Assembly: GCA_965242695.1 (NCBI GenBank) | Contig: CBDESU010000001.1 | Span: forward strand, 2,112,001 to 2,176,000 | Direction: 5' to 3' | DNA: 64,000 nt | Source of the DNA: Cenarchaeum sp. | GTDB lineage: Archaea > Thermoproteota > Nitrososphaeria > Nitrososphaerales > Nitrosopumilaceae | Shown here: piece after piece, positions 42,303-61,224 of the stretch | Position numbering within the stretch: position 1 is the first letter of the stretch | Layout of the letters: every line of letters begins with the position of its first letter | Notes under the pieces: model-generated | The model's input: only the letters and a program-made list of their open reading frames with translations | What the model was told of the DNA's origin: nothing | Databases searched by the model: none | Translations under genes and position numbers: made by a program

Positions 42303-42539
42303 TTGCCTAGCAGTTCGGGCGGCACCGCGGCGCCGTTCTCGTCGAGGGACATGCTCCTGAGGGGCACGGCCGTCGCCGCGATCGTCGCCGTGCCGTCCCT
42401 CTCGGCGTTCGGCATGGCATGGTCCGCCCTGGGCGACTTTGTGGCCGCCACCGTGGCCGGGATCGCCGTGCACCTTGCCGGAATGGCCTTTGCCGGGCGC
42501 ATATACCGCAGGCTGTTCGGCGGCGGGGCGGGGCGGTAG
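42303..42539 (+). CDS. Small two-TM membrane protein
   Basis: TTTTATTG box ~25 nt before a TTG start; hydrophobic helices. Confidence 0.6.
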   Translation: MPSSSGGTAAPFSSRDMLLRGTAVAAIVAVPSLSAFGMAWSALGDFVAATVAGIAVHLAGMAFAGRIYRRLFGGGAGR

Positions 42540-42669
42540 GACGGAGGGGCCGCGCCGGGCGCGGCCCCCCCCCCACGCGGGAGCGCCGCGCCGGGCGCCG
42601 CTTGGGCAGGGGCGGCGATCGCCCCCGCCCGTCCGCAAGCGCTTTATGCCTGCGCCATTCCCGCCGTCC

Positions 42670-43857
42670 ATGGCACGGGAACAGGCAGCCGGCGGCGCGG
42701 GCAACCCCTGCATCGACGACGGTTCCCTGGCAACGGAGGCGGAATACGACGAGGGCTGCGCGCCGACCCCGCTCGAGTACAGCGTCGACACCATACCCGC
42801 GGACTACACCCTGTGGGAGCTCTACGGCAAGTGGCTCAACAGGGACATCTCAATCCCAAGGCTCGAGAGGCCGTACCCCTGGACGGAGGCGCAGGCATCG
42901 AGGCTGATCGAGTCGTTCATAATGGATCTTCCCGTCCCTCCCGTGTACATGCTCACCGGCGATGACGGGCGGTCGGTCGTTATTGACGGCATGCGGCGCC
43001 TGCTGACGGTGTTTTCGTACTTTGGGGGATCGCACCCCGAGACGGGCTCCCTTGCGGGCCAGAGGTTTCGCATTGTCGGGATCAACGAGGACAGCAGGCT
43101 TCACGGCAGGACGTTCCTCGAGCTTGCCGAGGAGGACCAGTGCAGGCTCAAGGATGCAGTACTCAGGGCGATGCTGGTGAGGCGAAGGGGCGCGGGCGGC
43201 GCCGACTCTGCCGTGTACGAGATATGCGAGCGCCTCAACAGCGGCAGCACGCGCCTAGAGCCCCAAGAGGTGCGCAGCCGCGCCTACGGCGGCGGCCTCG
43301 ACGACCTCCTTGACGAGATAAACAGGGACGAGAGCTGGAGGGCCATGCTCGGGAGGCCACGGCCAGATCCCGCAATGAGGGACAGGGAGATGGTGCTGCG
43401 CTGCATGGCCCTGTTCCACGAGGGGGACGAGTACGCAGGGCCGATGAAGGGGTTCCTGTCAGGGTTCATGGCCAGGCACAGGAGCCCAGGCGAAAGGTTT
43501 CTAGCGGAGGAGCGCCGGCGCTTCAAGACCGCCTGCGGCGCGGCGCTCGCCGCGCTCGGCCCCGCGCCCTTCAACAACGGGAACGGCCAGCTGCGGGCGC
43601 CCCTGCTCGACTCCGTCATTGTCGCATTCGCCCGCAGCGGCCGCGCGGGGCCCGTCAGCGGCCGCGCGGGGCCCGTCAGCATGAGGGGGCGCCTCGAGGC
43701 GCTGCGATCCGACAAGAGGTTTGCCGAGTACGCGGGATCGTCATCGACGACGGCAGGCGCGGTAAGGGGCAGGCTCCGCCTTGCGCAGGAGATCATGTTC
43801 GGCGGCGCGAGTGGGAGCGGATCCAGGGGCCCGGCGGCCAAGGTCGCACCCAAGTAG
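42670..43857 (+). CDS. DUF262 (GmrS/ParB-like) domain protein with divergent motifs
   Basis: W..AQASRLIES...LPVPP, VIDGMRRL and ERLNSG..L...EVR; CTTTATG upstream. Confidence 0.82.
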   Translation: MAREQAAGGAGNPCIDDGSLATEAEYDEGCAPTPLEYSVDTIPADYTLWELYGKWLNRDISIPRLERPYPWTEAQASRLIESFIMDLPVPPVYMLTGDDGRSVVIDGMRRLLTVFSYFGGSHPETGSLAGQRFRIVGINEDSRLHGRTFLELAEEDQCRLKDAVLRAMLVRRRGAGGADSAVYEICERLNSGSTRLEPQEVRSRAYGGGLDDLLDEINRDESWRAMLGRPRPDPAMRDREMVLRCMALFHEGDEYAGPMKGFLSGFMARHRSPGERFLAEERRRFKTACGAALAALGPAPFNNGNGQLRAPLLDSVIVAFARSGRAGPVSGRAGPVSMRGRLEALRSDKRFAEYAGSSSTTAGAVRGRLRLAQEIMFGGASGSGSRGPAAKVAPK

Positions 43858-43932: not shown

Positions 43933-45513
43933 CTACGGTCCGCTTCTCGACTCGCCGGCGCCCGCCCCGCCCCGCTCCGCCTCGTACCTCTCGAGCAGCC
44001 ACCGGTGGTCGCCGGCCATGCGGTCGATCCGCTCGCTCATGCTCGCAATCTGCGCCCTGAGCTCGTCCGAGCCGTCCCTCCCCTCGATGACCGACGCCAT
44101 CCTCGTGAACACGTTCAGGCGCGGCGCGGCCTTTGCGTACTCGCGCCGGAGCGACTCGGGGTACAGCGTCGCCTGCACCTCGTACGCGTCCTTTGGGGCG
44201 TGGCCGATCACGTGGTCGGCCACGTCGATCCTGCACCCCGCGTCTATGAGCGTCGACTTTACGAGCTTGCGCAGCTGGTGCGAGTGGCGCGAGGGCGACT
44301 CGCGCTCGCCCGGCCGCCGCCTCACCAGGCCGGCCCTCACGGCCAGCTTTGCAAACGACCTGTGCACCCAGCTGTCCTTGATGGGGCTCCCCTGCTGCGT
44401 TATGTACAGCGGGCTGCCGTCGCCGCGCCGCAGCGGGCGGCAGGTGCGCCTCTCGCGGTCGTACAGCCAGTCCTGCAGGGCCGAGACCGCATCCCGCTCG
44501 ATGAACCCCGTGTGCCGGTACGCCGTCTTGACCCTGGACAGCACGATCGGCACGGGGCACTTGTCCAGGCTCCAGTTGCGCGGGTCGTCGGTCCCCATGT
44601 GGGCCGAGACCTGGTCGAACGCCGTGTAGTTGAACCGGTCGGCGATCGTGGCCCTGTCCAGCCCGCGGTGGAACATGGACAAAAACACCGACCTCTCGAG
44701 CAGGTTCGGGCGGCCGGCCGTCAGTATCGTCGCAAAGTCGGCCAGCGTGAGCGAGTCGTCCATCCACTCGTCGCCTCCCCCCGCCTGCGCGGCCGGCCGG
44801 CCGCCGCGGGCCCTGCGCATGCGGAACTTTACGGAGTACGACACCTCGTGCGTCTCAAAGTACGACTTTAGGGCCGTCTCGGCGCTCCGCACGGACGCGA
44901 CCGACAGCGACCGGTCGTCCCGGACCTCGCTGAGGAACTCGCGCGCGATCTTGTTGAGGTCGCGCGAGCTCGACTCGGGCTCTAGGTACAGGTCGAGCAG
45001 GTCGCCGACGCCTCCGAGCGTGACCGCCTCGACGACCTTGCCGTACGAGCCGTCCTCGCGGCGCCACCTCGTGATCTCCACCGTCCTGCCGGCGAGCCAC
45101 CCGTGGAACTTGTACAGGCGGCTCGCGTACGACCGGCGCGTCCCCGTGAGGGTGCTGCTAGCCAGGTCGTGCTGAAAGTCGGTCCCGCTGAGCGTCTTGA
45201 GCCAGTAGGCGACGGACGGTATGCGCACGAACTCGGCGAGCGTGACGGACGGGCGGCTGTCTATCGCCTCGACGATCCCGGCCTTTTCCGCCGCCCGTAT
45301 GGCCGCGAGGGCGCGGTTCATGCGGTGCGCGTACGACGACGGCGGCACGTCCCTGTCGGCCGACCTCTTTGCCAGTATCGTCGACGAGACGACGTCGCCG
45401 CACCGCAGCCCGGCCAGGAAAGGGACGGCCCGGGGCGGCAGCACGCCCGACTCTACTGCCTCTACGATCTGCCGGTCAATGGCCCCTCCGTCGCCGTCGG
45501 GGCACCCCGTCAC
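43933..45513 (-). CDS. Tyrosine recombinase / integrase
   Basis: TRRSY core-binding helix, RVKT, HQLRK (H-x-x-R), IGH and downstream Tyr (DAY); C-terminal coiled coil. Confidence 0.88.
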   Translation of the reverse strand: MTGCPDGDGGAIDRQIVEAVESGVLPPRAVPFLAGLRCGDVVSSTILAKRSADRDVPPSSYAHRMNRALAAIRAAEKAGIVEAIDSRPSVTLAEFVRIPSVAYWLKTLSGTDFQHDLASSTLTGTRRSYASRLYKFHGWLAGRTVEITRWRREDGSYGKVVEAVTLGGVGDLLDLYLEPESSSRDLNKIAREFLSEVRDDRSLSVASVRSAETALKSYFETHEVSYSVKFRMRRARGGRPAAQAGGGDEWMDDSLTLADFATILTAGRPNLLERSVFLSMFHRGLDRATIADRFNYTAFDQVSAHMGTDDPRNWSLDKCPVPIVLSRVKTAYRHTGFIERDAVSALQDWLYDRERRTCRPLRRGDGSPLYITQQGSPIKDSWVHRSFAKLAVRAGLVRRRPGERESPSRHSHQLRKLVKSTLIDAGCRIDVADHVIGHAPKDAYEVQATLYPESLRREYAKAAPRLNVFTRMASVIEGRDGSDELRAQIASMSERIDRMAGDHRWLLERYEAERGGAGAGESRSGP

Positions 45514-45549
45514 GCGGTACTCCCCTGCCTTGATGGGGCGCGGTTTGGT

Positions 45550-45679
45550 GATATGGTATTAAATGTTCATGCATTCTGGGCGCCCCGTGCTTCTGGGCGC
45601 CCCGTGCCGGCGGCATGGTATCACCAGTTCATGGACAGGGCTGTTTGATACCATCCAGCTATATACGCTGCATGGTATC
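45550..45679. promoter_or_regulatory. Divergent control region with four ATGGTATY boxes, TATA-like elements and a 17-bp tandem duplication
   Basis: ATGGTATT at 45553, ATGGTATC at 45615 and 45672, GATACCAT at 45647; ttctgggcgccccgtgc x2 at 45574-45607. Confidence 0.65.
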
Positions 45680-48600
45680 CAACTCCTACGTATCCCGTAT
45701 TTCCGTTACTAGTATCATACTAGCCACCATCATGGTGGCCGGCGGGGTCACGTTCGCCATACCGGGAGCCATCCCGGAGGCCGCGGCCCAGTCGAGCAAC
45801 GCAAACCTGTACGTGTCTGCCGAGAACAGCGCCTTTGACAACGTCTTCACGGGCCTGAACGTCGTAGAGGTCGTAGTACGCGACCCCGACCGCACCATCA
45901 GGAGCGGCAGCGACATCGCTGCCGAGCCTCGCGTGACGGTCGACGGCGACTGGCTGAGGATGGTCCAGGGCAACGACGGCAGCTGGTACGGGTACTTTGC
46001 TGAAAACGCAAGCATTCATGTTATAGAAAATGATCAAGATAACCCTAACGCCATAGATTATGGCGAAAGATGTGATACCGGTCCGGCGGGGCTTACCGGC
46101 TACGAGTTCGAATATGCGATGTGCGCCACTGGCGCTGATCGCGATAAAGACGGCAAGCATCCGGTCATCAGGACCCCCAAGGCGATCAACAATGCAGACA
46201 ACACAGGCGATCGCGTTAACTTTGGAAGCATCGGGCTCGAAAGGGCCAACCAATGGCCCTTCATCCAGGTGTACAACTTTGACGACGAGAGTGACATTGT
46301 CGTAGAGTACGAAAAGGGCGGCGATGCCCAGAGCGTCACGCTCTACTATGACAGCGATCCTGACGAGTACGGCACCGGCCTAGAGCTGGGCCGCGACAGG
46401 TATCCCTTGGGCGGCGGAGTCATCATGACCATGACCGACCTAGCGATGAATGTCGATCCGACGGACAGCGACACTTGGACGTTTACTACGGCCGACGATG
46501 GGGCATACTACTACCTGTTTGACGACAATGGCATGTGCCAGGATAACCGTAGTGATGCAAACAAGATCAACCGCGATCTTGATGGCCTTGAAGGCGTCGA
46601 CGACAACCTGTACCTGACCATCGATCCCGACAAGGACGGGTCGACGGTTCTAAAATTCATGGTGCCCCACCCGGGTAACCAGAATGACGACTGTGGTGCA
46701 GGAACAAGCACTGCCAAGACCCTGATGATGAACTCCGACACGAACAACATGGTCACCTTCATCGAGGGCGACCCGGGCGTGTTCACGAACACCAACACCA
46801 ACACCGATCTGCCCAACATAGTTGTCCCCACCAACGCGGCGAGGGGCAACACAGCGGTCATCGACTACAACGACGGCGACATATCCGTGGTGGTGGGCCA
46901 TACCTTTGGGACCATAACGCTAGACGACGATGCAGTCGGTGGCGTGTGGAACTCTGGTGAGGAGATACCCGTCACGCTCACGGATGCGGATATTAACCGG
47001 GCCGCCATGAACGATGAAGACATAGACGTAAGCAATCCCGCCTTTACGATAATCCCTAGCGTGCGGATCGGCTCGCCGATCACGCTTGCGAGCGCGGAGT
47101 CGGCCATGCTGGGCAACTCCATGCTTGCTGGCTCCAACGGCACATTCGCTGTCGATTCGTTCAGCGACGTTGGTAGGCTGATGCCCAACATGACCGCCAA
47201 CACCGTAACGTTCAAGTGGGCAGAGATGGGCGAAGAGATCGGGAGCTTCCTCGCAGATGAGGAAAATAACAGGGTCTACAACGCCGACGGCAGCTTCAGG
47301 GGCGTCACTTACCCCTCTGCCACGTTCCAGTTCCTCAACTTCGATGTTCGCTCAATCGGGAGCGTAAATAGCGCAGCCTTCCAGTGGATGAACGCAAGTG
47401 GAATGCAGAGCATTCCGATTCCTGATGTCAGCGGCGGTCAGGACCTTGTCGAAATAACCAATGTCGACGTGTCCATGATTCCTGACGATGCTGACGTTTA
47501 CATCATGCTGAACTTTGGTGGCAACACCCTCGAGAGCGGCATGACATACCCTGTTGTAGTCGACCTCTTTAGCTTTGGCCAGATGGGAGACGGCGTTGCC
47601 GCCAGCGAGCGGATCAACAACGCAATCTACCGGCTAGAGCTTGAGGAGAGCGGCGACAACACCGGCGTATTCGAAGGCACGATAGAGTACACGATGCTCA
47701 ACCAAATTAACGTCCGTGACCCGGGCACATACAATGGCCTGGACACAATCAGTGACGCAGTCACAATGGTGGTGCACAACGACATGACCGACGAGGACTC
47801 TATCCGTGTCAACTACCTAGACCTGGGCGCCGACGGCGTTGCGACGCAGATCGCCGACCAGGTAGAGGCACCTACAACATCGGGATCGGTCTCGTTCGAT
47901 GCCGACAACTACAAGGTGGCCGACACGGTCACCGTGACCCTTGAGGATGCAGACATGAACACAGCAGTCGAGACGATCGAGATATACACGGTCGTGGACA
48001 CTGCTGACGATCCAGCCTATGACATGGTCGGCGTCGAGAACTACGGCGTCAACAGCGCGGGAGATGCGTTCGGCCGCGTCCTAGACGTCACGTTCGACGA
48101 CCAGCTGTGGCTTGAGGGCTGCGGCATCAGCGGCGACAACGGCCTCGGCTCAACCGGCTTTACGCTGATCGAGACTGGCGCCGACACGGGCGTCTTCACC
48201 GGCGACTTCCAGATTCCGCTCCAGTACTGCCACAGGCTTCCCAACAACGATGTAGAAGTCCGGTCCACCACCGGCGTTGATATGGAAGTCAACTATGTTG
48301 ACTACCGCGACGCCTCCGGCGAGACCCTAGAGGTCGGCGACAGCGCCGGCATCAGGGCCAACACCGGCACGGTGAGCCTAGACAGGACCGTATACCCGGT
48401 TCCGTTCGGCGTACCGGCCGACTACGGCGGCAACCCGCCGCAGGGCGCATCGATATTCCCGATCCACGCGACCGGGATAAACAGCTGGCCGGCGCCGGGC
48501 ACGTTCCTGCCCAACGGCGACCTGACGATCCACATCCGGGTCAACGATCCGGACTTTGACATCTCGGCGAGCGGCGAGGACACCATTGCGGTCAACATAC

Positions 48601-50612
48601 CTCGCGGAGACCAGACTGCGAAGACGGATGCGAGCGCACTTGAGCACGGGCCTTTGAAGGTCACCGTCTCGAGGGGCGCAGCATCCGTGATCGTCGCGAC
48701 TGCGGGCGGCGAGGCTGCCAACGACGGCAGGATCACCACCCTCGGCACGCGGACGTTCGTGCAGAACGAGCAGATCATGCAGGAGGTTCTCAACGACGTA
48801 ATGGTCGGAACCACGCGCGAGCTTGGGCCGATCACCGAGATCGCCCCCGACGCGGGCATATTTGAGCTTGACATGGTCCTGAGGTACACCGACGGGCCGT
48901 CCGGCAACCAATGCCCGACAACGAGCGTCTTCCAGGCGCTCGACGGCAGCGACGGCACCGACGCAAATAACAGGTTTACCGACAACGTCAACACGCACTG
49001 CATACAGCAGGGCGACATCATCACCGTAGAGTACACCGACCCGACCGACTCGTCGGGCAACCCGAACACCGTGACCGACTCGGCCACGTTCGACCTGCGC
49101 AACGGCGTGCTCCAGTCCGACAAGTCCGTCTACATCATCGGCCAGGACATGATCCTGACGCTGATCGAGCCGGACCTCGACCTGGAGAGCGACGAGGCCG
49201 AGACGTACGATCTCGACCTGATCGAGTGGGACTCGGACGCGGCCGGCACGACCATGGGCAACATGGGCGGCGGCGCGGTATTCGACCCCGAGCCTTCCGA
49301 CCTTAGGGAGACCGGCGACAGCACTGGTATATTCCAGGTTGTAGTCGAGATACCCGAGGCGTTCGGGAACAACCGCGTAGAGCGGGGCGAGGAGATCGAG
49401 CTCGAGTACACCGACTTTGGCCCGTCTGGCGCCGACTACGTCGGCGACGACACCGAGGACATCAACCTGACCGTCTTCACCTCCAACTTTGGGGCTACGA
49501 TCGAGCTGGACCAGAAGGTCTACACGTGGACCGACAAGGTCTACATTACGATCGTCGCGCCCGACCACAACTTCGACTCGGACCTTGTCGACGAGATCGG
49601 CGAGACCTCTAGCGACCCGATCAGGGTATCCACGAGGAGCGCCGAGCTCGAGCAGTACCGCTTGGTCGAGACGGGCACCGACACCGGCATATTCGCCGGC
49701 GAGGTGATCCTGACAGGCTTCAGCCACGACGCGGACGGCGACACCACAACGGGCAACAACGGCTACGACATCGTCAACACCCCAGCGTCCGGCACCGGCC
49801 CGACCGACGGCAAGCTTCCGACGGGCGACGACGACGGCATTACCGTGTCGTTCGAGTTCTCCGAGGACGAGACCGTCGTGACGACGGCGCTAGTGCGCTG
49901 GAGCATAGGCGAAGTGCAGTGGCTAGAGACGAGCTACCCGGCGCAGGGCACGGGCATTGTCAGGGTCATCGACCCCGACATGAACCTGGACCCAGAGTCG
50001 GTGGACAACTTCGGCATCGACGTGTACTCGGACTCGGACTCGGGAGGCATCGACCTCACCGTGACCGAGACCAACGAGGCCACGGGCGTGTTCGAGGGGA
50101 CGGTCTTCTTCACGACTACCGACGAGTCGTCGGGCCACAGGCTGCGCGTCGCCGAGGGCGACACGATAACGGCCGAGTACACCGACGGCACGCTCCCGAA
50201 CCCGTACAGCACCAACGACGATATCGACGTAACGGCAGCCGCAATCATCGGCACGATCGTGCCTCCGCTCGAGAGGGCGCCGGTCTCGAACGCCCGGGTA
50301 GTCGATTCCTTCGGGAACACGCTATCCTCGGTGTCCGTGGACCAGCAGGTGCAGATAACGGCCGACGTGATCAACGGGCAGGACCGGACGCAGTCGTTCG
50401 CGTACCTTGTCCAGATCCAGGATGCCAACGGCGTCACCGTCTCGCTCTCGTGGATAGAGGGCTCGCTCAATCCGGGCCAGTCCCTCTCGCCAGCGCAGTC
50501 TTGGACGCCCGACATGCCAGGCTCGTACACCGCAACGGTGTTCGTCTGGGAGTCGGTCGACAACCCGACCGCGCTGTCTCCGCCGGGCACCGTAACGGTC
50601 AACGTAAGGTAG
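45672..50612 (+). CDS. S-layer protein paralog A (thaumarchaeal major S-layer family)
   Basis: Signal peptide IMVAGGVTFAIPG..PEAAA, NANLYVSAEN, repeated ETGxDTGxF Ig-like domains, very acidic, C-terminal VWESVDNPTALSP. Confidence 0.88.
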   Translation: MVSNSYVSRISVTSIILATIMVAGGVTFAIPGAIPEAAAQSSNANLYVSAENSAFDNVFTGLNVVEVVVRDPDRTIRSGSDIAAEPRVTVDGDWLRMVQGNDGSWYGYFAENASIHVIENDQDNPNAIDYGERCDTGPAGLTGYEFEYAMCATGADRDKDGKHPVIRTPKAINNADNTGDRVNFGSIGLERANQWPFIQVYNFDDESDIVVEYEKGGDAQSVTLYYDSDPDEYGTGLELGRDRYPLGGGVIMTMTDLAMNVDPTDSDTWTFTTADDGAYYYLFDDNGMCQDNRSDANKINRDLDGLEGVDDNLYLTIDPDKDGSTVLKFMVPHPGNQNDDCGAGTSTAKTLMMNSDTNNMVTFIEGDPGVFTNTNTNTDLPNIVVPTNAARGNTAVIDYNDGDISVVVGHTFGTITLDDDAVGGVWNSGEEIPVTLTDADINRAAMNDEDIDVSNPAFTIIPSVRIGSPITLASAESAMLGNSMLAGSNGTFAVDSFSDVGRLMPNMTANTVTFKWAEMGEEIGSFLADEENNRVYNADGSFRGVTYPSATFQFLNFDVRSIGSVNSAAFQWMNASGMQSIPIPDVSGGQDLVEITNVDVSMIPDDADVYIMLNFGGNTLESGMTYPVVVDLFSFGQMGDGVAASERINNAIYRLELEESGDNTGVFEGTIEYTMLNQINVRDPGTYNGLDTISDAVTMVVHNDMTDEDSIRVNYLDLGADGVATQIADQVEAPTTSGSVSFDADNYKVADTVTVTLEDADMNTAVETIEIYTVVDTADDPAYDMVGVENYGVNSAGDAFGRVLDVTFDDQLWLEGCGISGDNGLGSTGFTLIETGADTGVFTGDFQIPLQYCHRLPNNDVEVRSTTGVDMEVNYVDYRDASGETLEVGDSAGIRANTGTVSLDRTVYPVPFGVPADYGGNPPQGASIFPIHATGINSWPAPGTFLPNGDLTIHIRVNDPDFDISASGEDTIAVNIPRGDQTAKTDASALEHGPLKVTVSRGAASVIVATAGGEAANDGRITTLGTRTFVQNEQIMQEVLNDVMVGTTRELGPITEIAPDAGIFELDMVLRYTDGPSGNQCPTTSVFQALDGSDGTDANNRFTDNVNTHCIQQGDIITVEYTDPTDSSGNPNTVTDSATFDLRNGVLQSDKSVYIIGQDMILTLIEPDLDLESDEAETYDLDLIEWDSDAAGTTMGNMGGGAVFDPEPSDLRETGDSTGIFQVVVEIPEAFGNNRVERGEEIELEYTDFGPSGADYVGDDTEDINLTVFTSNFGATIELDQKVYTWTDKVYITIVAPDHNFDSDLVDEIGETSSDPIRVSTRSAELEQYRLVETGTDTGIFAGEVILTGFSHDADGDTTTGNNGYDIVNTPASGTGPTDGKLPTGDDDGITVSFEFSEDETVVTTALVRWSIGEVQWLETSYPAQGTGIVRVIDPDMNLDPESVDNFGIDVYSDSDSGGIDLTVTETNEATGVFEGTVFFTTTDESSGHRLRVAEGDTITAEYTDGTLPNPYSTNDDIDVTAAAIIGTIVPPLERAPVSNARVVDSFGNTLSSVSVDQQVQITADVINGQDRTQSFAYLVQIQDANGVTVSLSWIEGSLNPGQSLSPAQSWTPDMPGSYTATVFVWESVDNPTALSPPGTVTVNVR
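45705..45781 (+). repeat. Left outer inverted repeat: 77 bp identical to 56094-56170; begins with GTTACTAG-tatcata-CTAGCCAC
   Basis: Direct comparison with the reverse complement of the paralog B 5' end. Confidence 0.9.
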
Positions 50613-50663
50613 ACAACACACAGATACTAGTTTCACTTTTCCTTTTTTCATTTTTTTGAATCC
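50170..50663 (+). repeat. Inner inverted repeat (~494 bp, identical to 51038-51531) covering the C-terminal coding region and 3' UTR
   Basis: By-eye comparison; imperfect similarity extends to about 50691/51011. Confidence 0.88.
50631..50658 (+). terminator. Oligo-T archaeal terminator of paralog A
   Basis: tttcacttttccttttttcattttttt after the stop. Confidence 0.75.
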
Positions 50664-51042
50664 TTCTTTGTGGGGGGCACTGTGCCCCTGCATCCTCAAC
50701 TCAGTGGGGGAGAGGGTGCGTTCATGAGTAAGCACGGCTGATCTTGGCTGAAAGTGTATGGCATCATCCGATGTCGACATGCAGGAACGCTTTGAGTTAC
50801 ACACACATCGTGGCGACGGGTGTCGGACCTGCCACCATCCCGCAACGTAGCAGATGAAACATGATCGCGACATGATCTCAATGCCGCGCCTCTCCCATGC
50901 CCATGTCAGGGGAATGACGTACACGACGCGTCGCGACGGGATTGCCGCAGGGCGCGAACTGATGCGCGGTAAGAGTGGGGGCGGTCCAGACCGTCGCATG
51001 CAAGTCGCCGGCAGGGCATAGCATCCCCCACGAAGAGGGATT

Positions 51043-51070
51043 CAAAAAAATGAAAAAAGGAAAAGTGAAA
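51043..51070 (-). terminator. Oligo-T archaeal terminator of paralog B
   Basis: Identical inverted copy of the paralog A terminator. Confidence 0.75.
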
Positions 51071-51088
51071 CTAGTATCTGTGTGTTGT

Positions 51089-54000
51089 CTACCTTACGTT
51101 GACCGTTACGGTGCCCGGCGGAGACAGCGCGGTCGGGTTGTCGACCGACTCCCAGACGAACACCGTTGCGGTGTACGAGCCTGGCATGTCGGGCGTCCAA
51201 GACTGCGCTGGCGAGAGGGACTGGCCCGGATTGAGCGAGCCCTCTATCCACGAGAGCGAGACGGTGACGCCGTTGGCATCCTGGATCTGGACAAGGTACG
51301 CGAACGACTGCGTCCGGTCCTGCCCGTTGATCACGTCGGCCGTTATCTGCACCTGCTGGTCCACGGACACCGAGGATAGCGTGTTCCCGAAGGAATCGAC
51401 TACCCGGGCGTTCGAGACCGGCGCCCTCTCGAGCGGAGGCACGATCGTGCCGATGATTGCGGCTGCCGTTACGTCGATATCGTCGTTGGTGCTGTACGGG
51501 TTCGGGAGCGTGCCGTCGGTGTACTCGGCCGATATCGTGTCGCCCTCGGCGACGCGCAGCCTGTGGCCCGACGACTCGTCGGTAGTCGTGAAGAAGACCG
51601 TCCCCTCAAACACGCCCGTGGCCTCGTTGGTCTCGGTCACGGTGAGGTCGATGCCTCCCGAGTCCGAGTCCGAGTACACGTCGATGTCGAAGTTGTCCAC
51701 GGCCTCTGGGTCCAAGTTCATGTCACGGTCAATGACCCTGACAATCCCCGTGCCCTGCGCCGGGTAGCTCGTTTCTAGCCACTGCACTTCGCCTATGCTC
51801 CAGCGCACTAGCGCCGTCGTCACGACGGTCTCGTCCTCGGAGAACTCGAACGACACGGTAATGCCGTCGTCGTCGCCCGTCGGAAGCTTGCCGTCGGTCG
51901 GGCCGGTGCCAGATGCAGGCGTGTCGACAATGTCGTAGCCGTTGGTGCCCGTCCTAGTGTTTCCGTCCGCGTCGTGGCTGAAGCCTGTCAGGATCACCTC
52001 GCCGGCGAATATGCCGGTGTCGGTGCCCGTCTCTACGAGGCGATACGGCTCGAGCTCGGCGCCGCGGGTCGAGACCCGTATCGGGTCGGATCCCGTCTCG
52101 CCGATCTCGTCGACAAGGTCAGAGTCGAAGTTGTGGTCTGGCGCGACGATCGTAATGTAGACCTTGTCGGTCCACGTGTAGACCTTCTGGTCCAGCTCGA
52201 TCGTTGCCCCAAAGTTGGATGTGAAGACGGTCAGGTTGATGTCCTCGTCGTCGTCGCCGACGTAGTCGGCGCCAGACGGGCCCCAGTCGGTGTACTCGAG
52301 GGTGATCTCTTCGCCCCTCTCGACCCTGTCGCCGCCTAGCTCCTCGGGTATCTCGACTACAACCTGGAATATTCCAGTGCTGTCGCCGGTCTCCCTCAGG
52401 TCGGACGGTTCGGGATCGAAGTTGACGCTGCCTCTCGGCTGGCCCACGGTGCCCATTGAAAGGGCAGCCGCGTCAGAGTCCCACTCGATCAGGTCTAGGC
52501 TATACGTCTCTGCCTCGTCGCTCTCCAGGTCGAGATCCGGCTCGATCAGCGTCAGGATCATGTCCTGGCCGATGATGTAGACGGACTTGTCGGACTGGAG
52601 GACGCCGTTGCGCAGGTCGAACGTGGCCGAGTCGGTCACGGTGTTCGGGTTGCCCGACGCATCTGTCGGATCGGTGTACTCTACGGTCAGAATGTCGCCC
52701 TGCAGGATGCAGTGGTTTGTCTGCCCGTCGGAGAACCTGGTAAGGGCGCTCTCGGTCTTCATGTTCGTCTCGGATATCCTCTCGCCCTCAAGCGGCTCGA
52801 AGGATCCCGTCTCGGGACACTGCGAGCTGGCCGGGCCATCAGTGTACCTGATCGGCAGGTCGAGCTCGAATATGCCGGCGTCGGGGGCGATCTCGGTGAT
52901 CGGCCCTAGCTCTCTGGTCTGGGACACGTCGCGTATCCGCTCCTGGATGGTTCCGTCAGCCATTCTCACGATGGTAGATGCCGTCCCTGCAGAGGCCACA
53001 TCCGAGCCGGACGTGATCACGCCGCCCATATTGTCTTCGTTGCCTATCTTTGCTGGACCTCCTGCGGTAGCGATAACCACTGTATCAGCACCCCTCGAGA
53101 TTGACACCTTGAGGGGGCCATGTGTCTTGTCGTCACCGCGATCGATCGCTTCGCTTATCACGTCTTCGCCGCTAGCCGATATGTCGTAGTCGGGATCGTT
53201 GATCCGGACATGCACTGTCAGATCGCCCGTCGGCAGGTATGTGTTGACGGTGCCTACGTTGCCACCGTGGCCGGTGGAGTGTATCGGGAATATGGTGTTG
53301 GGAGTCATGCGAGTAAAGCTGTTGTCGTTGTTCCTCGTGGTAAAGTCATTGGCAGTACCGAACGGAACGGGATAGACAGTCCTGTCTAGACTGACAGTAC
53401 CGGTGTTGGCCCTGATGCCGGCGCTGTCGCCGACTTCTATAGTCTCGCCGGAGGCGTCACGGTAGTCAACATAGTTGACCTCCATGTCGACGCCGGTGGT
53501 AGACCTAGACTCGTCACCGATGCTGGTCCTGTGGCAGTAGTTTGACGGAATCTGGAAGTCGCCGGTAAAGACGCCGGTATCGGCGCCCGTCTCGATCAGC
53601 GTAAAGCCGGTCTCGCCGAGGCCGTTGTCTACGTCATCGTCTATGCTTGCTTCGCAACCCTTAAGCCATAGCTGGTCGTCGAACGTAATGTCTAGGACGC
53701 GTCCCAGTGCAGCGCCGCTGGCGACACCGCCAAGGCGCCCGTACCCGGGCTCGCCAATCATGTCAAATGCAGGATCGCGTATGTCGGGAAGTTCGTTGCC
53801 CTGCGCGTCCACAGCCTTGTAGGTCGTGTCGACCGCAGTGTAGATGTCCACCGTCTCGACGGCAGTGTTCAGGTCGGCATCTTCGAGTGTGACTGTGACC
53901 GTGTCGGCCACCTTGTAGTTGTCAGCATCGAATGATACCGACCCCGATACCGTCGGAGCCTCCACTTGGTCGGCGATCTGCGTCGCAACGCCGTCGGCTC

Positions 54001-56203
54001 CCAAGTCGCGGTAGTTGACGCGGACAGAGTCCTCGTCAGTCATGTCATTGTGGACAATCAAGACGATTGCATCGCTTATTGGGTCAATGTCCTCATAGGT
54101 AGATTCCTGTCGGACGTTGATCTGGTTGAGCATGATGTATTCCATGCTTCCCTCGAAGACGCCCGTGTTGTCGCCGCTCTCCTCCAGCTCCAGCCGGTAG
54201 ATGGCGTTGTTGATCCTGTCGCCAGGTGCAACGCCGTCGCCCATCTGCCCAAAGCTGAAGAGGTCGACCGCTACAGGGTAAGTCTTGTCGGCTTCAAGAG
54301 TAGTAATCCCGAAGTCCAGCACTATGTCGACTTGCGCATTGTCTGGAATGTTGTTGATCTCGGTCATGTTGGCAGTTATGCCGACAAGGCCCTGATCCAT
54401 GCCATTGACAGCACCTATCGCTGTCTCCATGTCGTCACCCCATTGGAATGACGCGCCAGTAAGTTCACCGATCGAGCGCACGTCAAAGTTGAGGAATTGG
54501 AACGTGGCTGGCTTGGGTGCAACGTGCGTTGCTGTCCCTTGTGCCGGATCATCCTCCAGGAACGACTTGAGCGTCTCGCCCGTTGTCACTCCCTTGAACG
54601 TCAGGTCCACGTTGATGGTGTCCATTGCTGGCATCAGCCTGACAATGTCGCTAAAAGCGTCCTTCGTAAAGTTGCCCGCCATAGCCATATCCGTGGAAGC
54701 TAGCGTGAGATTTTCATTGCTTCCGACCATTACCATCGAGTCAACCCCGCCAAGCGTAATGGGTGAACCAATGCGCACGCTAGGAATAATCGTGATCTTG
54801 TCGTTATACAGCTCTAGATCCTCGTCGTTCATGGCCATGCGGTTAACATCTGCATCTGTAAGCGTGACGGGTATCTCCTCGCCAGAGTTCCACACTCCGC
54901 CGACTGCGTCGTCGTCAATCGTTATGGTTGCAGTGGAGTAACCCACCACCACGGACATAGTGCCGTCGTTGTGGTCAATGACGGCGGTAGTGCCCCTATT
55001 CGCACTCATTGGCACGTAGAGGTTGGGCGTATCGCTGTCACTATCAGTGTTTGTGAACACGCCAGAGTCACCTTCGATAAAAGTGACCATCCGGATGTTT
55101 TCATTGTTGTTGTTCATGTTGCTATCGCGGTTCACAGCATTGGCAACGATCAGGTCTGCACCGCGGCTATTGATTGCACTGTCATCTGCACATGTGCGCG
55201 TGCCATCTCTCTTGACAGGATCATCCTGGCTACCCTCATGAGGCGCCCTGAACTCAACTGCCATGCTGCCATCCTTATCGGTGTCAATGGTAAGGTAGAG
55301 GTTGTCTTCAACACCCTCGAGTCCCTCACCGTCAACGCCATCCCGGGGAAGCATAGGCGGATTCCTGTCTTGGCACACACCATCGTCATCGAAGAGATAG
55401 TAGTATGCAGCTTGGTAGTTGTCATGCTCAGAATTGTCTGTAGTCATGAACGTCCACGTGTCGCTGTCCGTCGGGTCCACGTCCATGGCGAAGTCCGTCA
55501 TGGTCATGATGACGCCGCCGCCCAGGGGATACCTGTCGCGGCCCAGCTCCAAGCCGACGCCGTAGTCAGTGGGATCGCTGTCGTAGTAGAGGGTGACACT
55601 CTGCGAGTCGCCTCCCTTTTCGTACTCTACGACAATGTCGCTCTCGTCGTCAAAGTCGTACACCTGGATGAATGGCCACTGGTTTGCATCAGCGCTACTA
55701 AGCCTGATGCTACCCAAGTTGGCGCGGTCCGCCGCATCGTTGATCGCCTTTGGCGTCCTGATAACATCGTTGGCGCTACACCTTAGCGAGACGGACTCGG
55801 TATTTCCGAGGCTCTCCATCGTGCATTCAGTGCCGTAGTTTATTGCAGGACCGACATTATCAATGTTGACCTCTGCAAAGTACCCGTACCAGTTGCCGTC
55901 GTTGCCGTGGACCATCCTCAGAAGGTCTCCGTCTACCGTCACGCGAGGCTCGGCGGCTATGTCGCTGCCGCTCCGTATGGTGCGGTCGGGGTCGCGAACG
56001 ACCACCTCTACGACGTTGAGGCCGCTGATGGCGTTGTTGGTGTCGGCGTTCTCTGCCGACACGTACAGGTTTGCGTTGCTCGACTGGGCCGCTGCCTCCG
56101 GGATGGCTCCCGGTATGGCGAACGTGACCCCGCCGGCCACCATGATGGTGGCTAGTATGATACTAGTAACAGCATGCCGGTTCCTTGCTGTTTTTGATAC
56201 CAT
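51089..56203 (-). CDS. S-layer protein paralog B (possibly a silent cassette)
   Basis: Full-length intact paralog of A; GC-rich upstream DNA with no TATA-like box. Confidence 0.88.
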   Translation of the reverse strand: MVSKTARNRHAVTSIILATIMVAGGVTFAIPGAIPEAAAQSSNANLYVSAENADTNNAISGLNVVEVVVRDPDRTIRSGSDIAAEPRVTVDGDLLRMVHGNDGNWYGYFAEVNIDNVGPAINYGTECTMESLGNTESVSLRCSANDVIRTPKAINDAADRANLGSIRLSSADANQWPFIQVYDFDDESDIVVEYEKGGDSQSVTLYYDSDPTDYGVGLELGRDRYPLGGGVIMTMTDFAMDVDPTDSDTWTFMTTDNSEHDNYQAAYYYLFDDDGVCQDRNPPMLPRDGVDGEGLEGVEDNLYLTIDTDKDGSMAVEFRAPHEGSQDDPVKRDGTRTCADDSAINSRGADLIVANAVNRDSNMNNNNENIRMVTFIEGDSGVFTNTDSDSDTPNLYVPMSANRGTTAVIDHNDGTMSVVVGYSTATITIDDDAVGGVWNSGEEIPVTLTDADVNRMAMNDEDLELYNDKITIIPSVRIGSPITLGGVDSMVMVGSNENLTLASTDMAMAGNFTKDAFSDIVRLMPAMDTINVDLTFKGVTTGETLKSFLEDDPAQGTATHVAPKPATFQFLNFDVRSIGELTGASFQWGDDMETAIGAVNGMDQGLVGITANMTEINNIPDNAQVDIVLDFGITTLEADKTYPVAVDLFSFGQMGDGVAPGDRINNAIYRLELEESGDNTGVFEGSMEYIMLNQINVRQESTYEDIDPISDAIVLIVHNDMTDEDSVRVNYRDLGADGVATQIADQVEAPTVSGSVSFDADNYKVADTVTVTLEDADLNTAVETVDIYTAVDTTYKAVDAQGNELPDIRDPAFDMIGEPGYGRLGGVASGAALGRVLDITFDDQLWLKGCEASIDDDVDNGLGETGFTLIETGADTGVFTGDFQIPSNYCHRTSIGDESRSTTGVDMEVNYVDYRDASGETIEVGDSAGIRANTGTVSLDRTVYPVPFGTANDFTTRNNDNSFTRMTPNTIFPIHSTGHGGNVGTVNTYLPTGDLTVHVRINDPDYDISASGEDVISEAIDRGDDKTHGPLKVSISRGADTVVIATAGGPAKIGNEDNMGGVITSGSDVASAGTASTIVRMADGTIQERIRDVSQTRELGPITEIAPDAGIFELDLPIRYTDGPASSQCPETGSFEPLEGERISETNMKTESALTRFSDGQTNHCILQGDILTVEYTDPTDASGNPNTVTDSATFDLRNGVLQSDKSVYIIGQDMILTLIEPDLDLESDEAETYSLDLIEWDSDAAALSMGTVGQPRGSVNFDPEPSDLRETGDSTGIFQVVVEIPEELGGDRVERGEEITLEYTDWGPSGADYVGDDDEDINLTVFTSNFGATIELDQKVYTWTDKVYITIVAPDHNFDSDLVDEIGETGSDPIRVSTRGAELEPYRLVETGTDTGIFAGEVILTGFSHDADGNTRTGTNGYDIVDTPASGTGPTDGKLPTGDDDGITVSFEFSEDETVVTTALVRWSIGEVQWLETSYPAQGTGIVRVIDRDMNLDPEAVDNFDIDVYSDSDSGGIDLTVTETNEATGVFEGTVFFTTTDESSGHRLRVAEGDTISAEYTDGTLPNPYSTNDDIDVTAAAIIGTIVPPLERAPVSNARVVDSFGNTLSSVSVDQQVQITADVINGQDRTQSFAYLVQIQDANGVTVSLSWIEGSLNPGQSLSPAQSWTPDMPGSYTATVFVWESVDNPTALSPPGTVTVNVR
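56094..56170 (-). repeat. Right outer inverted repeat (partner of 45705-45781)
   Basis: Identical 77 bp; GATACCAT box at 56196-56203. Confidence 0.9.
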
Positions 56204-56429
56204 ATCCCGCCGGGCCATCGGGGCGGCGCCAGCCGTCGGCGTGCATTCGGCAGGGTGGGCCGGACATTGGCGCGGGCGGAACCGGGACTCGGCCTCTGAC
56301 CTTGGCGCGCTGTCGGGCGGGCGGCTTGGCGCCGCATGGTGCGGGATTGTCCTCCCATCCCACTCCGCCGGCCCGTTCGCTCGCCGTCAAAAGGCAGGGT
56401 ACATAACCCACCCAAGTTTTCCCACGGAC

Positions 56430-56615
56430 ATGGCAATGAGGGAAGTCAAACCGCTCGGCGACAAGCAGTGGGCTATGCTAGTAGAGCAGCTGGAGAAGGG
56501 ACCCACACCGGAGATGGTCCATGCCGTTGAGCTTGCCCAAGAGCGCGTCAAGCACATAAAGGAGGTGGGTCCCTACGAGTTCCAAGAGCGTCGCAGGCGG
56601 GCATCAGGAGCGTGA
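56430..56615 (+). CDS. Small protein, putative antitoxin upstream of a GNAT remnant
   Basis: 61-aa ORF with an AT-rich box upstream; L..KQW..LVEQLEKGPTP resembles DUF1778-type C-termini. Confidence 0.55.
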   Translation: MAMREVKPLGDKQWAMLVEQLEKGPTPEMVHAVELAQERVKHIKEVGPYEFQERRRRASGA

Positions 56616-56625
56616 TATCTCGCCG

Positions 56626-57033
56626 GTGCTTCCAGACACCGTTCCCGATCCAAGGTTCGAGTGTCGCAACGACGAGTTCAACGAATACTACAAGGTCAAC
56701 TGCTACAGCGACATGGAGGAGGGGTTGAACAGAACATGGATGTGCGGCGACGGGCGCGGCGGCGTCCTTGGCTACCTCTCAATAGCCGCAGCGCACCCGC
56801 GCCCCGATCGCGATCCTGTCCTGTGCAGCCAGCTGGGCTCGCCATCTGCAGCCGTAGGCGGCGCACGCTGGCAGATGTCGGCATCGGAGTGGGCGCCACG
56901 CAGGCTCCACGACGCCTCAGGGTGCGGTTCAGCCGCATCCGCGTCGAACGCTACGGCGGCTACGCATGCGCTTACGCTACGGCGGTGTTCGTGTCAGGCA
57001 ACACGGTACATTTCATTGGTGTCGTCATCGTAG
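56626..57033 (+). pseudogene. Degenerate GNAT-family (toxin-type) acetyltransferase
   Basis: FECRNDEFNEYY...D...G..RT...VLGYLSIAA matches the N-half of GNAT toxins; the acetyl-CoA motif region is garbled. Confidence 0.55.
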
Positions 57034-57540
57034 GCAAGCTTGATTACGCGATAGTTGGGCGGGTAGTTGCCGTTCGCGTCGGGCTCCAGCTGGGGGTCGA
57101 GCTTTTCCAGGTCCTTCCGAAAGGCCTTTGCGAGTCCTGCCGCAAACGCCTTGTCCCAGAGCGCCAGCTTTTTATCGATCATCTCCTCGCCGTCATGATC
57201 GTCCACGTCCGGCCTGATGGTGGACGACTCTATAATGTCTGCGATCTCGGGGAGCACGCCCAGGCCGTCAAGGGCCGCGCGCCTCCTCGAACCTGTCGAT
57301 CATGTCGCACAGCACGAATCCCGCAAGGCAGAGTGGATCGTAAAACCAAAAGTTGTTCTCATTGTCCTGTTTGACCCATTCGTCCGCCAGCGACACCGCG
57401 GTCGAATGCAGGTGGCGAAGGTCGGCAAGCACAGCCTGCCCGTCGCCGCCGCCCTGTCCAGACGACGCCCGCGCCGCGCGTTCCGCCATGTCAGCAAGCG
57501 CCAGTGCCTGGCTCACGGCCGCCCCGTTCGTGGTTGCCAT
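56994..57540 (-). pseudogene. Hypothetical gene split by a probable frameshift (57268-57540 plus 56994-57257)
   Basis: Two consecutive protein-like ORFs; the second frame is open upstream (RRAALDGLGVLPE) across the first stop. Confidence 0.45.
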
Positions 57541-57969
57541 ATGTGCCTTGCCCGCCCGTAAAAATCCTGGGAGTCGCGCCTATGCACCGGCCCGCGCCCG
57601 GCGCCGTGCCCGACCCTGTCGTCTTTTCCGATGCGGCACCCTGTGGAGCGGCAGCGGCGGTCGTGCGCGGATGCATGCCGCCCCGCAGGGCTCGGATCGT
57701 AACGCTTGGGGCAGGGCAGGAGGATCCCGAATGTGTAAGGGCGCAGCGGCCGGCGCCGTGCCAGGCCGCGTCTCGGGTGAGCATGCGGGGAAAGAGAGAC
57801 GCCCCAAGTCAGCGCGGCGGCGCGAGTGCACCCCTGCGGCGGCCATTGCATCGGCCATGCAAAGCCGCGCCGCCCGGGGCCTGCCAAGGCGCGCCTGGCC
57901 TGCCATGCGGGGCCGTTCCGGCCCGGCAGAGGCGGCGGGGGGCCGCAGGCTCGGTCTGCGTGCCGGCGG

Positions 57970-59308: not shown

Positions 59309-59917
59309 ATGGCGCAGGAAGGCAAGCCGTGGGATCGAATGGCGTTCTGCTACGCCGGGGACGCCGAAGTGGACAGCAGGGGCGTACTGCGCACGGTGAT
59401 GCGGCCGAGAATCCCGATCAGAATCACCAACGTCCGTTCGGCAAGGAGGGGCGGATCCGACCGCGGCTACGGGGCCGCCGCCCTGGCGGACTCGGGTGCC
59501 GATGCCACGTTTATCACCAGAAAGGCGGCCGACGCGATTGGCATAGACCTTGATGCGCTGGACAAGGCGGAGCTGGCTACGCCGTTCGGAAGGTTCAAGG
59601 TGCACCGCACGCTTGTGCGCGTCGCGGTCCTGTACAGGGGGCGAAGGGTCGGCCTGGGAAAAGTCCCCGCCTCTATACCCGAAAAGGACATTGTCCAGCT
59701 GGGGAATCGCCCGTACGTCGTCATGGGGCGGTCGAATGTCTTTAATCAGTACTCGGTAAAGTTTGACGACTACAGACAGATACTGACCACGGAAAGAATA
59801 GCTTCAGGACAGGCTCCGCCTGCGGGCGCGGACGCGGCGCAGGCCGTCGGCGCCCTGGCGGGAGGGGGCGGCGCTCTGCCGCGCGGGGAGCGGCCGGCAC
59901 GGCGCGCCGCTGCCTAG
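59309..59917 (+). CDS. Retropepsin-like aspartyl protease
   Basis: RPRIPI, ALADSGADATFI, A.AIG and VMGR..F motifs. Confidence 0.8.
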   Translation: MAQEGKPWDRMAFCYAGDAEVDSRGVLRTVMRPRIPIRITNVRSARRGGSDRGYGAAALADSGADATFITRKAADAIGIDLDALDKAELATPFGRFKVHRTLVRVAVLYRGRRVGLGKVPASIPEKDIVQLGNRPYVVMGRSNVFNQYSVKFDDYRQILTTERIASGQAPPAGADAAQAVGALAGGGGALPRGERPARRAAA

Positions 59918-60351
59918 CGCATCGCCGTCCGGCAGCGCGCAGAGCGGCGCATTCCGCCCGCATGCGGCCCCGCCGAAGCAGGGGCGCCAGCGGCATTCGC
60001 CAAGGGCGCGCGGCGCCTTTCGCGGCGACGGTCGCGGCCCATTTGCGGCCGGGGCGGCATCGGCGCAGGGCGCCGCGGCATTGCCCCCTCCCCTCTTTGC
60101 CGGCAAGTGCCCAACGATTGATATGCGCGCCCCGGCCGGCCGCGGCCGTGTCGGTGCACCGTACCGGGGCCGGCGGCCGCCCCGCCGGGCGGCGCGCGGC
60201 CGGAGATGCGCGCGGCCCAGATGGGCCGGGCGAGGCGCCCGCCGCAGGGGCGCGTGGCGCGTCCCCCCGGCGCAGGCGGGAACGGCCGGCAGGGCCCGAG
60301 CCGTCGTCCCCGAGCAGGGGAGCGCGCAGTCCGGGGAGCCCCGCGGGGAAT

Positions 60352-61224
60352 ATGGAGCTTGACGGCCAGACCGTTCACTTTGCCGACTCCCGCGACATGT
60401 CGTTCATCGAGGACAACTCGGTCGACTTCATCATGACGAGCCCCCCGTACTGGAACCTAAAGGACTACGGCCACAGCGGGCAGATCGGGCAGTGCGGGTA
60501 CGAAGAGTACCTGGAGCAGCTCAACGCGGTATGGGACGAGTGCTACAGGGTCGCAAAGCCGAGCGCCGTGTTTGTCCTCAACGTCGGAAACCGGCGGCAC
60601 GACAGGACGTACCGCCCGATAGGGTTCGACGTGTACGCCAGGATGCAAAGGTGGACCCTGTGGGACACGCTCATATGGTACATACCAAACGCCCTCCCCC
60701 AGCCGGCATCGTACATAGAGCGGCTGTTCGACAACAAGTACGAGTTTTTGCTCATGTTCACAAAGGACGGCGGGCGCAGCGAATACACGTTCCACAAGCC
60801 GCGCGTGCCGAACAAGTACAGGGACGCCGACCCGCGAAGGCACAAGATGAACGAGAGGGGCAGGTGCCTCGGGAACATCGTGCGCATCCCCGCGTACAGG
60901 CCACCCAACGTCAGGTCCATGAACTACCACATCGCCTCGTACCCCGAGGAGCTCGTGTCGCTCATGCTGCATACGATGACGGACGCCGGCGACACGGTCC
61001 TGGACCCCTTCCTCGGGTCGGGCACCACCCTGAAGGTGGCGCGGGCGATGGGGCGGAGGGGGATGGGCGTCGAGATCAACGAAGACTACCGGCCCGTCAT
61101 ACGGGGAAAGATTGCCGAGAAGTTCGCCGTCCCCGACTGGAGGACGGTCGACATAATGCACTCGACGACGATGGAGACGGGCATGGCGGCGCCGAGAAAG
61201 GCCCACCTGCTCAGGGAGGGGTGA
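60352..61224 (+). CDS. DNA amino-methyltransferase (N4-C/N6-A, beta class)
   Basis: TSPPY precedes DPFLGSGTT; H..SYPEEL; GVEIN. Confidence 0.92.
   Translation: MELDGQTVHFADSRDMSFIEDNSVDFIMTSPPYWNLKDYGHSGQIGQCGYEEYLEQLNAVWDECYRVAKPSAVFVLNVGNRRHDRTYRPIGFDVYARMQRWTLWDTLIWYIPNALPQPASYIERLFDNKYEFLLMFTKDGGRSEYTFHKPRVPNKYRDADPRRHKMNERGRCLGNIVRIPAYRPPNVRSMNYHIASYPEELVSLMLHTMTDAGDTVLDPFLGSGTTLKVARAMGRRGMGVEINEDYRPVIRGKIAEKFAVPDWRTVDIMHSTTMETGMAAPRKAHLLREG

Follow-up and report, generated by a model that had tools for sequence, protein, structure and literature searches.

The window analysed here is a stretch of 64,000 nucleotides of a Cenarchaeum sp. genome (G000; 3.89 Mb, 68% G+C, archaeal rRNA, two contigs C1 and C2; the window is C1:2112001-2176000), in which two convergent S-layer genes stand next to a gene of the tyrosine-recombinase family and form what may be one half of an S-layer switch operating by DNA inversion. 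The recombinase gene (43933-45513, minus strand, 526 aa; open reading frame list and Pfam PF00589) adjoins S-layer gene A (45672-50612, plus strand, 1646 aa), on which S-layer gene B (51089-56203, minus strand, 1704 aa) converges. Both S-layer genes are intact, and the open reading frames and the Pfam match agree with the initial annotation of this DNA on all three genes and their arrangement. A matches the solved S-layer protein of Nitrosopumilus maritimus (NmSLP, PDB 8c8k) at 1522 bits, the best stretch pairing query residues 490-1645 with chain residues 568-1733, and B is likewise a homolog of this protein; A and B are therefore real S-layer genes, and paralogs, as had been annotated. Full-length matches of the NmSLP type were found in 31 of 41 related genomes, among the matches listed. 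Comparisons draw on a sister species (G004), a third genome bearing such pairs (G001) and two genomes of the same genus without pairs (G002, G003).

The 5' ends of A and B form an inverted repeat (45705-46003 and 55872-56170, 299 nt, 90%) that opens with a conserved segment of 77 identical nucleotides (45705-45781, plus strand, in A; 56094-56170, minus strand, in B). Identity sets in at the boundary 45705/56170 and the earliest mismatch falls at offset 77, exactly as first reported. A second inverted repeat joins the 3' ends (49251-50687 and 51014-52450; arms of 1437 nt, 94%, with a spacer of 326 nt), and its arms extend ~75 nt beyond the stop codons of both genes. B has an in-frame ATG of its own 33 nt upstream of the boundary (MVSKTARNRHA), and A and B both start with ATGGTATC, so that their upstream divergence amounts to 11 codons of a common layout. 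Rfam and tRNA scans of the window gave no match.

At the boundary of both genes lies the motif GTTACTAG-tatcata-CTAGCCAC, which had been described as an imperfect inverted repeat with a 7-bp spacer. The motif is present as described; a better reading is that of two perfect palindromes set side by side, CTAGTAT-C-ATACTAG and GCCACCAT-C-ATGGTGGC, together 31 nt long (45709-45739, plus strand, in A; 56136-56166, minus strand, in B). Across 3.89 Mb this double palindrome is confined to the 5' ends of the genome's four S-layer paralogs (five places, one end being assembled twice), a restriction that lies far beyond chance. The 5' segment covers the coding region of the signal-peptide core, and its first 64 nt are 100% identical between the window genome and the sister species in every cross-species pair (12 of 12). 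In the part of the coding region that is conserved best, these two genomes agree at 80-83% of third codon positions; since an identity of 64 nt would then be expected at only ~0.82^21 ≈ 0.015, some constraint on the DNA itself is indicated. Exact scans of metagenome and genome contigs with a 38-nt piece of the segment returned 0 stretches each, with near genomes maybe lying outside the scan.

Four S-layer cassettes and one canonical promoter

Tblastn and self-BLAST recovered four S-layer paralogs in the window genome, arranged as two convergent pairs, A/B and C/D. The second pair lies 28.8 kb beyond B and outside the window (C at C1:2197028, plus strand; D at C1:2210391, minus strand). An apparent third pair is C/D assembled twice, since C2:1-12526 is 100% identical to C1:2197832-2210357 in the self-BLAST. 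All four paralogs are open (1644-1731 aa) and agree without a mismatch over the first 65 nt from a common boundary, so the genome holds four complete cassettes with a common 5' segment. Adjacent convergent pairs were seen only in the window genome, the sister species and the third genome (41 genomes, among the matches listed).

Three types of flank reach the boundary: the recombinase-side flank of A, a GC-rich flank with GATATGGTATCA at B and C, and a third flank beside D on C2. In the GC-rich, 'silent' type the motif GATATGGTATCA (56195-56206, minus strand, at B) is common to the B and C flanks, with the ATG 33 nt before the boundary; inspection of the flank agrees with the earlier description of the DNA upstream of B as GC-rich and devoid of a TATA box. 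The flank beside D carries TTCATCATTGTTATATAC (TTATATA), then 26 nt, then the ATG of ATGAAAAACGAAATACACAGGAAAC (start MKNEIHRK). This flank aligns with the S-layer upstream regions of both genomes without pairs and with those of exactly one gene each in the sister species and the third genome, and in our reading it represents the canonical S-layer promoter with its start. By general knowledge, its spacing would fit a leaderless or near-leaderless archaeal transcript. In each of the three genomes with pairs the ATG of the promoter flank precedes the boundary codon by 24 nt. By sequence comparison A, B and C stand at flanks without the canonical promoter (outside the window, at a distance of 52.7 kb from the site of A), and with one canonical flank per genome a single copy is joined to promoter and start. 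In the third genome a start codon is missing from each of the remaining three copies, in which an in-frame stop precedes the boundary by 6-12 nt, yet all three stay open for ~1700 codons; judged by their reading frames, these three are true silent cassettes.

When protein sequences were searched with D in its expression-site form, no same-species relative was found beyond the genome's own proteins. The source names of homologs point to ammonia oxidizers of the Nitrosopumilaceae type (Nitrosopumilus, Nitrosarchaeum, Cenarchaeum symbiosum A). The 14 other top matches compared are 62-79% identical to A-D, and other species show S-layer N-termini of both the MKNE(I/T)HRKL type and the MVS type.

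The differences between cassettes follow the layout of the protein. Approximately the first 120 aa are conserved among A-D and the C-terminal ~500 aa are 90-100% identical; a hypervariable part (in A 46030-47830, plus strand, ~aa 120-720) shows 13-55% identity in most 60-column windows. Parts of the literature on NmSLP (PMC11153153) describe its N-terminal segment as the outermost glycosylated domains 1, 2 and 4 and its last domains as facing the membrane. The exposed face of the coat would therefore differ between cassettes and the anchoring part would be kept, as in antigenic variation systems. The cassettes are mosaics; there is no 1:1 orthology between the window genome and the sister species, and the permutation history is unreadable. 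In the sister species the paired genes P1L and P1R are 95-99% identical over the first 450 alignment columns. The cassette beside the recombinase there (L015:15435-15769, minus strand) has a one-base frameshift ~45 codons in, which points either to a dead cassette or to an error in the assembly.

Evidence for inversion

Beyond the boundary of D the two contigs of the assembly part ways. C2 runs into the promoter flank (R; junction D-R), and C1 runs for 2178 nt to its end as the reverse complement of the flank upstream of C (L), with a one-base difference in a C-run between the two copies. The junctions L-C, D-R and L-D are hence all present in the assembly, as expected from a mix of both orientations of the C/D segment (13.3 kb). 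The L-D junction is the expected product of a reciprocal C/D inversion and not of gene conversion at the expression site. The other contig break falls within a tandem-repeat array, where C1 and C2 overlap as well, suggesting that the chromosome is a circle opened at two heterogeneous places. This array (C1:20900-29300 and C2:1667400-1675135) has a period of ~384 nt, and the contigs overlap there over ~28.7 kb with 95% identity across the array.

In the sister species the order of the locus is the same: promoter flank, pair, middle, pair, recombinase. Its outer flanks align with those of the window genome in one sense and its middle region in the opposite sense, so that the two species differ by an inversion whose ends both fall within the S-layer pairs. 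The recurrence of a recombinase gene with convergent pairs in related genomes, which had been suggested as a check, was found in the sister species with the middle inverted; it did not extend to the third genome, whose recombinase copy is no ortholog.

Public sequencing runs (16, all as short-read Logan contigs) were also consulted, and X1-X4 were compared over 45200-56700. The contigs in this interval are at most ~900 nt long, some with Illumina adapter ends, and unable to bridge the 77-nt repeat; uncovered parts are uninformative. In one X1 contig, position 46004 in A and position 55679 in B are linked directly on opposite strands (depth 51, shorter side 36 nt), ~300 nt inside the gene and away from the palindrome. 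An X2 contig skips 55680-55874, so that X1 and X2 both show a minor variant devoid of this stretch, attached to A-type 5' sequence in X1 and to B-type 5' sequence in X2. The 31-mers flanking the X1 joint are unique to A and B in the assembly, which suggests, weakly and from a single metagenome contig, that A/B hybrids exist as minor variants. A 30-nt loose-end consensus in X2 at 56169 (agreement 0.6, two contigs) had no match in the genome and was dropped. Runs labelled sponge metagenome account for 0.29 and 0.20 of the sampled words, which gives only a hint as to habitat.

We propose, with a probability of roughly two in three, that the locus is a four-cassette S-layer switch with a single expression site, operating by inversion. 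The proposal builds on the four-cassette architecture, the single canonical promoter, both types of D junction and the inversion between the species; that switching recurs and changes the expressed coat is what we infer from them. Under this model the A/B pair would be one half of the variation locus. Recombination between two oppositely oriented 5' segments would invert the intervening DNA and thereby fuse a different cassette in frame to the sole promoter and its MKNEIHRK start. The promoter-side site could pair with C (13.3 kb) or with A (52.7 kb), and after the 52.7-kb flip B would come within reach through a flip of 10.5 kb. The inversions being nested, no cassette would be more than two steps away from the expression site. 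As assembled, A and B would both be parked, and the A/B flip would be one move of the nested set. The initial annotation had seen in the 10.47 kb A/B flip the switch itself, which in this assembly would swap two promoter-less positions. Its alternative, that both genes are cassettes for an expression site elsewhere, fits better now that the canonical promoter is found beside D, and its broader idea of expressed and silent S-layer genes exchanged by inversion offers the best reading of the whole locus.

The recombinase and the weighing of alternatives

The recombinase scores 28.8 bits against Pfam PF00589 (Phage_integrase; cut-off 27.1) and 30.5 bits in the genome scan, a narrow margin, and is the sole match to this profile in 3.89 Mb. 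On this match, and on residues invariant in 31 homologs (R293, K329, H412, R415, H438, Y444, Y451), it is a likely member of the tyrosine-recombinase family. In an hhalign comparison with E. coli XerD (probability 57%) the Box II His-x-x-Arg and the next His align, H412, R415 and H438 facing XerD residues that we take to be H244, R247 and H270. The invariant Y444 and Y451 flank the column of the XerD tyrosine (presumably Y279), and K329 lies 3 residues off the XerD Lys column, in this 57% alignment. Canonical tyrosine-recombinase chemistry appears only partly matched by the alignment. Among PDB sequences, searched with phmmer and with a 31-sequence profile, no recombinase chain was matched. 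The ortholog in the sister species is 80% identical and holds the same position beside the cassette.

As to the ends of the gene and its surroundings, amino acid conservation between the window genome and the sister species runs upstream of the GTG at 45513 (..KA(G/R)EYRV..; window 45490-45560, minus strand); upstream of this GTG the window genome has an in-frame TAA, with no ATG, GTG or TTG between, and the true start is uncertain. A protein with a GmrSD N-terminal domain (42439-43857, plus strand) adjoins the recombinase. No separate XerA-type recombinase was detected with the PF00589 profile in the 3.89 Mb, where it is absent or too divergent.

Between the recombinase gene and A lies an array of four ATGGTAT(C/T) motifs (45553-45679; at 45553, plus; 45615, plus; 45647, minus; 45672, plus). 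The motif occurs 106 times in the genome, and this array is its only cluster of at least three within 200 nt. Number, order and orientation are kept in the sister species, the spacers having diverged, and the motifs are putative accessory binding sites. The first overlaps TATTAAAT at 45556-45563, which stands 43 nt from the recombinase start and has its counterpart in TATAAAAT in the sister species; TATTAAAT/TATAAAAT is probably the promoter of the recombinase, and by its distance it more likely serves this gene than A.

As to the catalyst, the sequences incline us only slightly towards the adjacent tyrosine recombinase acting at the palindromes over plain homologous recombination. Several observations weigh against the recombinase in this role. 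In the XerD alignment the first catalytic Arg (GLR, box I) falls on an invariant Asp, D286, with the invariant R293 following 7 residues later. The family is patchy, being present in 5 of 41 relatives and in 39 of 301 family genomes (a count that takes in the unpublished G275) with up to 4 copies, a pattern resembling that of integrases of integrated elements as treated in parts of PMC6563490. A linkage of recombinase and S-layer pair in a third species was considered and rejected: the copy 4.4 kb from the pair in the third genome falls outside the clade of the window genome and the sister species in a FastTree tree (43 rows, 4 from the loci and 39 of 102 matches hand-picked across the identity range, with a long-branch warning). 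The conserved segment of that genome has no palindrome, and the neighbouring genes for a GmrSD protein, a DNA methylase and an AAA_15 ATPase also count against a role in switching. Long near-identical tracts between paired genes show that homologous recombination is active here. All this could be accommodated by the same cassette system with inversions brought about by RadA-dependent homologous recombination, in the manner of RecA at the Campylobacter fetus sap locus, the recombinase being a leftover or an unrelated integrase in a defence island. Such a scenario, which rivals the catalyst step only, would make use of the near identity that extends over 86-300 nt of the 5' ends and over 1.4-1.9 kb of the 3' ends; it would account for mosaic paralogs with homogenised tracts, for a silent-cassette architecture in the third genome that has neither palindrome nor orthologous recombinase, for a recombinase family that behaves like mobile-element integrases and for a hybrid joint that misses the palindrome. 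It is nevertheless less likely than not in our view: whichever of the three unrelated flank types is compared, homology breaks off at one and the same nucleotide, exactly where the double palindrome found nowhere else in the genome lies; the nucleotide conservation of the 5' segment between species exceeds coding need; and the sole tyrosine recombinase has stayed next to the cassettes in the two sister species, together with the footprinted motif array.

Other doubts concern the switch as a whole. The two-orientation reading of C/D draws on two contig ends, and two co-assembled strains or an extra duplication could give the same picture; the A/B flip was not observed in the short-read contigs, which cannot bridge the repeat. 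The 'silent' flanks of the window genome and the sister species mostly retain an in-frame ATG 33 nt before the boundary (one copy in the sister species is out of frame), and promoters there may have gone unrecognised. Six S-layer paralogs were co-detected in the proteome of a sponge ammonia oxidizer, according to parts of PMC6790972, so that such expansions can be co-expressed. Such co-detection would suit four static paralogs expressed separately or together, with the contig ends, which are common at repeats, reflecting assembly error or two fixed strains and the inversion between species being an ordinary repeat rearrangement. That no switching takes place is nonetheless unlikely given that three of the four copies in the third genome have no start codon and yet stay open for ~1700 codons, that each of three genomes has just one canonical promoter, and that the L-D junction is identical over 2178 nt but for one homopolymer base while the common stretch is 100% identical over 12.5 kb. 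Least probable of all is the version first put forward, in which the active promoter would lie in the A flank and the A/B flip of 10.47 kb would act as an on/off switch. It is true that the A flank is more AT-rich than the B flank, with a TATATA near A's ATG, that the recombinase is immediately adjacent, and that the A and B sites are inverted and in frame. The A flank, however, fails to align with the canonical promoter beside D. As for the three TATA-like boxes ascribed to A, the position of TATTAAAT at 45556 suits the recombinase gene better, the site at 45644 is a GATACCAT motif and not a TATA box, and the TATATA at 45660 ends 6 nt before the ATG of A and is not conserved in the sister species. 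The spacing from TATA box to start is usually ~26 nt in archaea, so this last box is too close for a start at that ATG.

Returning to the four-cassette inversion switch, its most specific form is tentative and in our estimate falls somewhat short of an even chance. It would be a chromosomal 'N-terminal shufflon' for programmed antigenic variation of an archaeal surface, in which a domesticated recombinase of the integrase family acts on the double palindrome of the signal-peptide region with ATGGTATC as arm-type sites and, through nested inversions, serves four cassettes from one promoter, likely so that a host-associated ammonia oxidizer escapes viruses or recognition by its host.

Known systems and further features of the locus

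Several known systems resemble the proposed switch. The sap locus of Campylobacter fetus likewise has several full-length S-layer cassettes with a conserved 5' region, a single promoter, nested inversions, and a conserved anchoring part next to a variable exposed part; it is bacterial and RecA-dependent, is not known to have a linked site-specific recombinase and encodes unrelated proteins, and its promoter sits on an invertible element between opposed cassettes, whereas here it sits on a fixed outer flank. In Lactobacillus acidophilus slpA/slpB, two opposed S-layer genes, one of them silent, are exchanged by inversion via an identical 5' stretch. That system has two genes, in contrast to four in two pairs here, with the pair of the window away from the promoter; the slpA/slpB-type feature of one gene of a pair behind an active promoter is absent from A/B and found in C/D. 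From the archaeal domain, the tail-fibre region of the haloarchaeal virus phiCh1 with Int1 offers programmed inversion between convergent genes by a tyrosine recombinase, at a virus locus and not in a cellular surface layer, and with a different repeat structure. Among bacterial systems the logic appears to be matched most closely by vsa/HvsR of Mycoplasma pulmonis and vpma/Xer1 of M. agalactiae, which have one expression site, silent genes without promoter or start, short 5' recombination sites, an adjacent tyrosine recombinase and interwoven inversions. These concern lipoproteins of wall-less bacteria with demonstrated recombinase activity; here such activity is inferred for a thaumarchaeal integrase-like family. 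The R64 shufflon with Rci, named in PMC8371274, where the phiCh1 virus integrase is mentioned too, also has a tyrosine recombinase gene beside invertible segments and changes one end of a surface protein. There the C-terminal ends of a plasmid pilus adhesin are swapped, whereas here whole gene bodies would be moved onto a fixed N-terminal stub on an archaeal chromosome.

Full-text literature searches found no DNA-inversion S-layer switching in a cellular archaeon, and parts of reviews on archaeal recombinases (PMC8371274) and archaeal S-layers (PMC5744192) contain no archaeal chromosomal counterpart. A survey of programmed inversions in bacteria did not scan archaea, to judge from parts of its text (PMC9881135), and the paper on the sponge ammonia oxidizer reports expanded S-layer gene sets with no mention of inversion in the parts concerned (PMC6790972). 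S-layers form the entire outer face of most archaea and in ammonia oxidizers also gather ammonium. If the proposed switch is real, archaea use the bet-hedging logic of bacterial pathogens and symbionts. It would provide a concrete handle on virus or host pressure in symbiotic ammonia oxidizers, it would yield a candidate for an inversion recombinase of archaea that has a short, defined site, and it would explain the 'expanded' S-layer sets of sponge-associated relatives, as these are described in parts of PMC6790972.

Further repeats and genes surround the two pairs. The flank upstream of C (C1:2191777-2196965) is made up of approximately three tandem units of 1-2 kb (84-87% identical), one frame of which plausibly codes for a small acidic protein; upstream of B, at window 56825-57840, there is a related copy (82%). 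Between the pairs, C1:2173644-2191420 (from window ~61644) holds ~ten repeats of 0.4-1.5 kb, 68-89% identical and in both orientations, of a family also present in the middle region of the sister species. A small open reading frame of ~60 aa (window ~56428-56615, plus strand), starting MAMREVKPLGDKQW..., is divergent from B. A DNA methylase and an AAA_15 ATPase are also encoded between the pairs (window 59767-61224, plus strand; L034:11376-13523, minus strand), and the setting of the S-layer cassettes is that of a defence or variable island.

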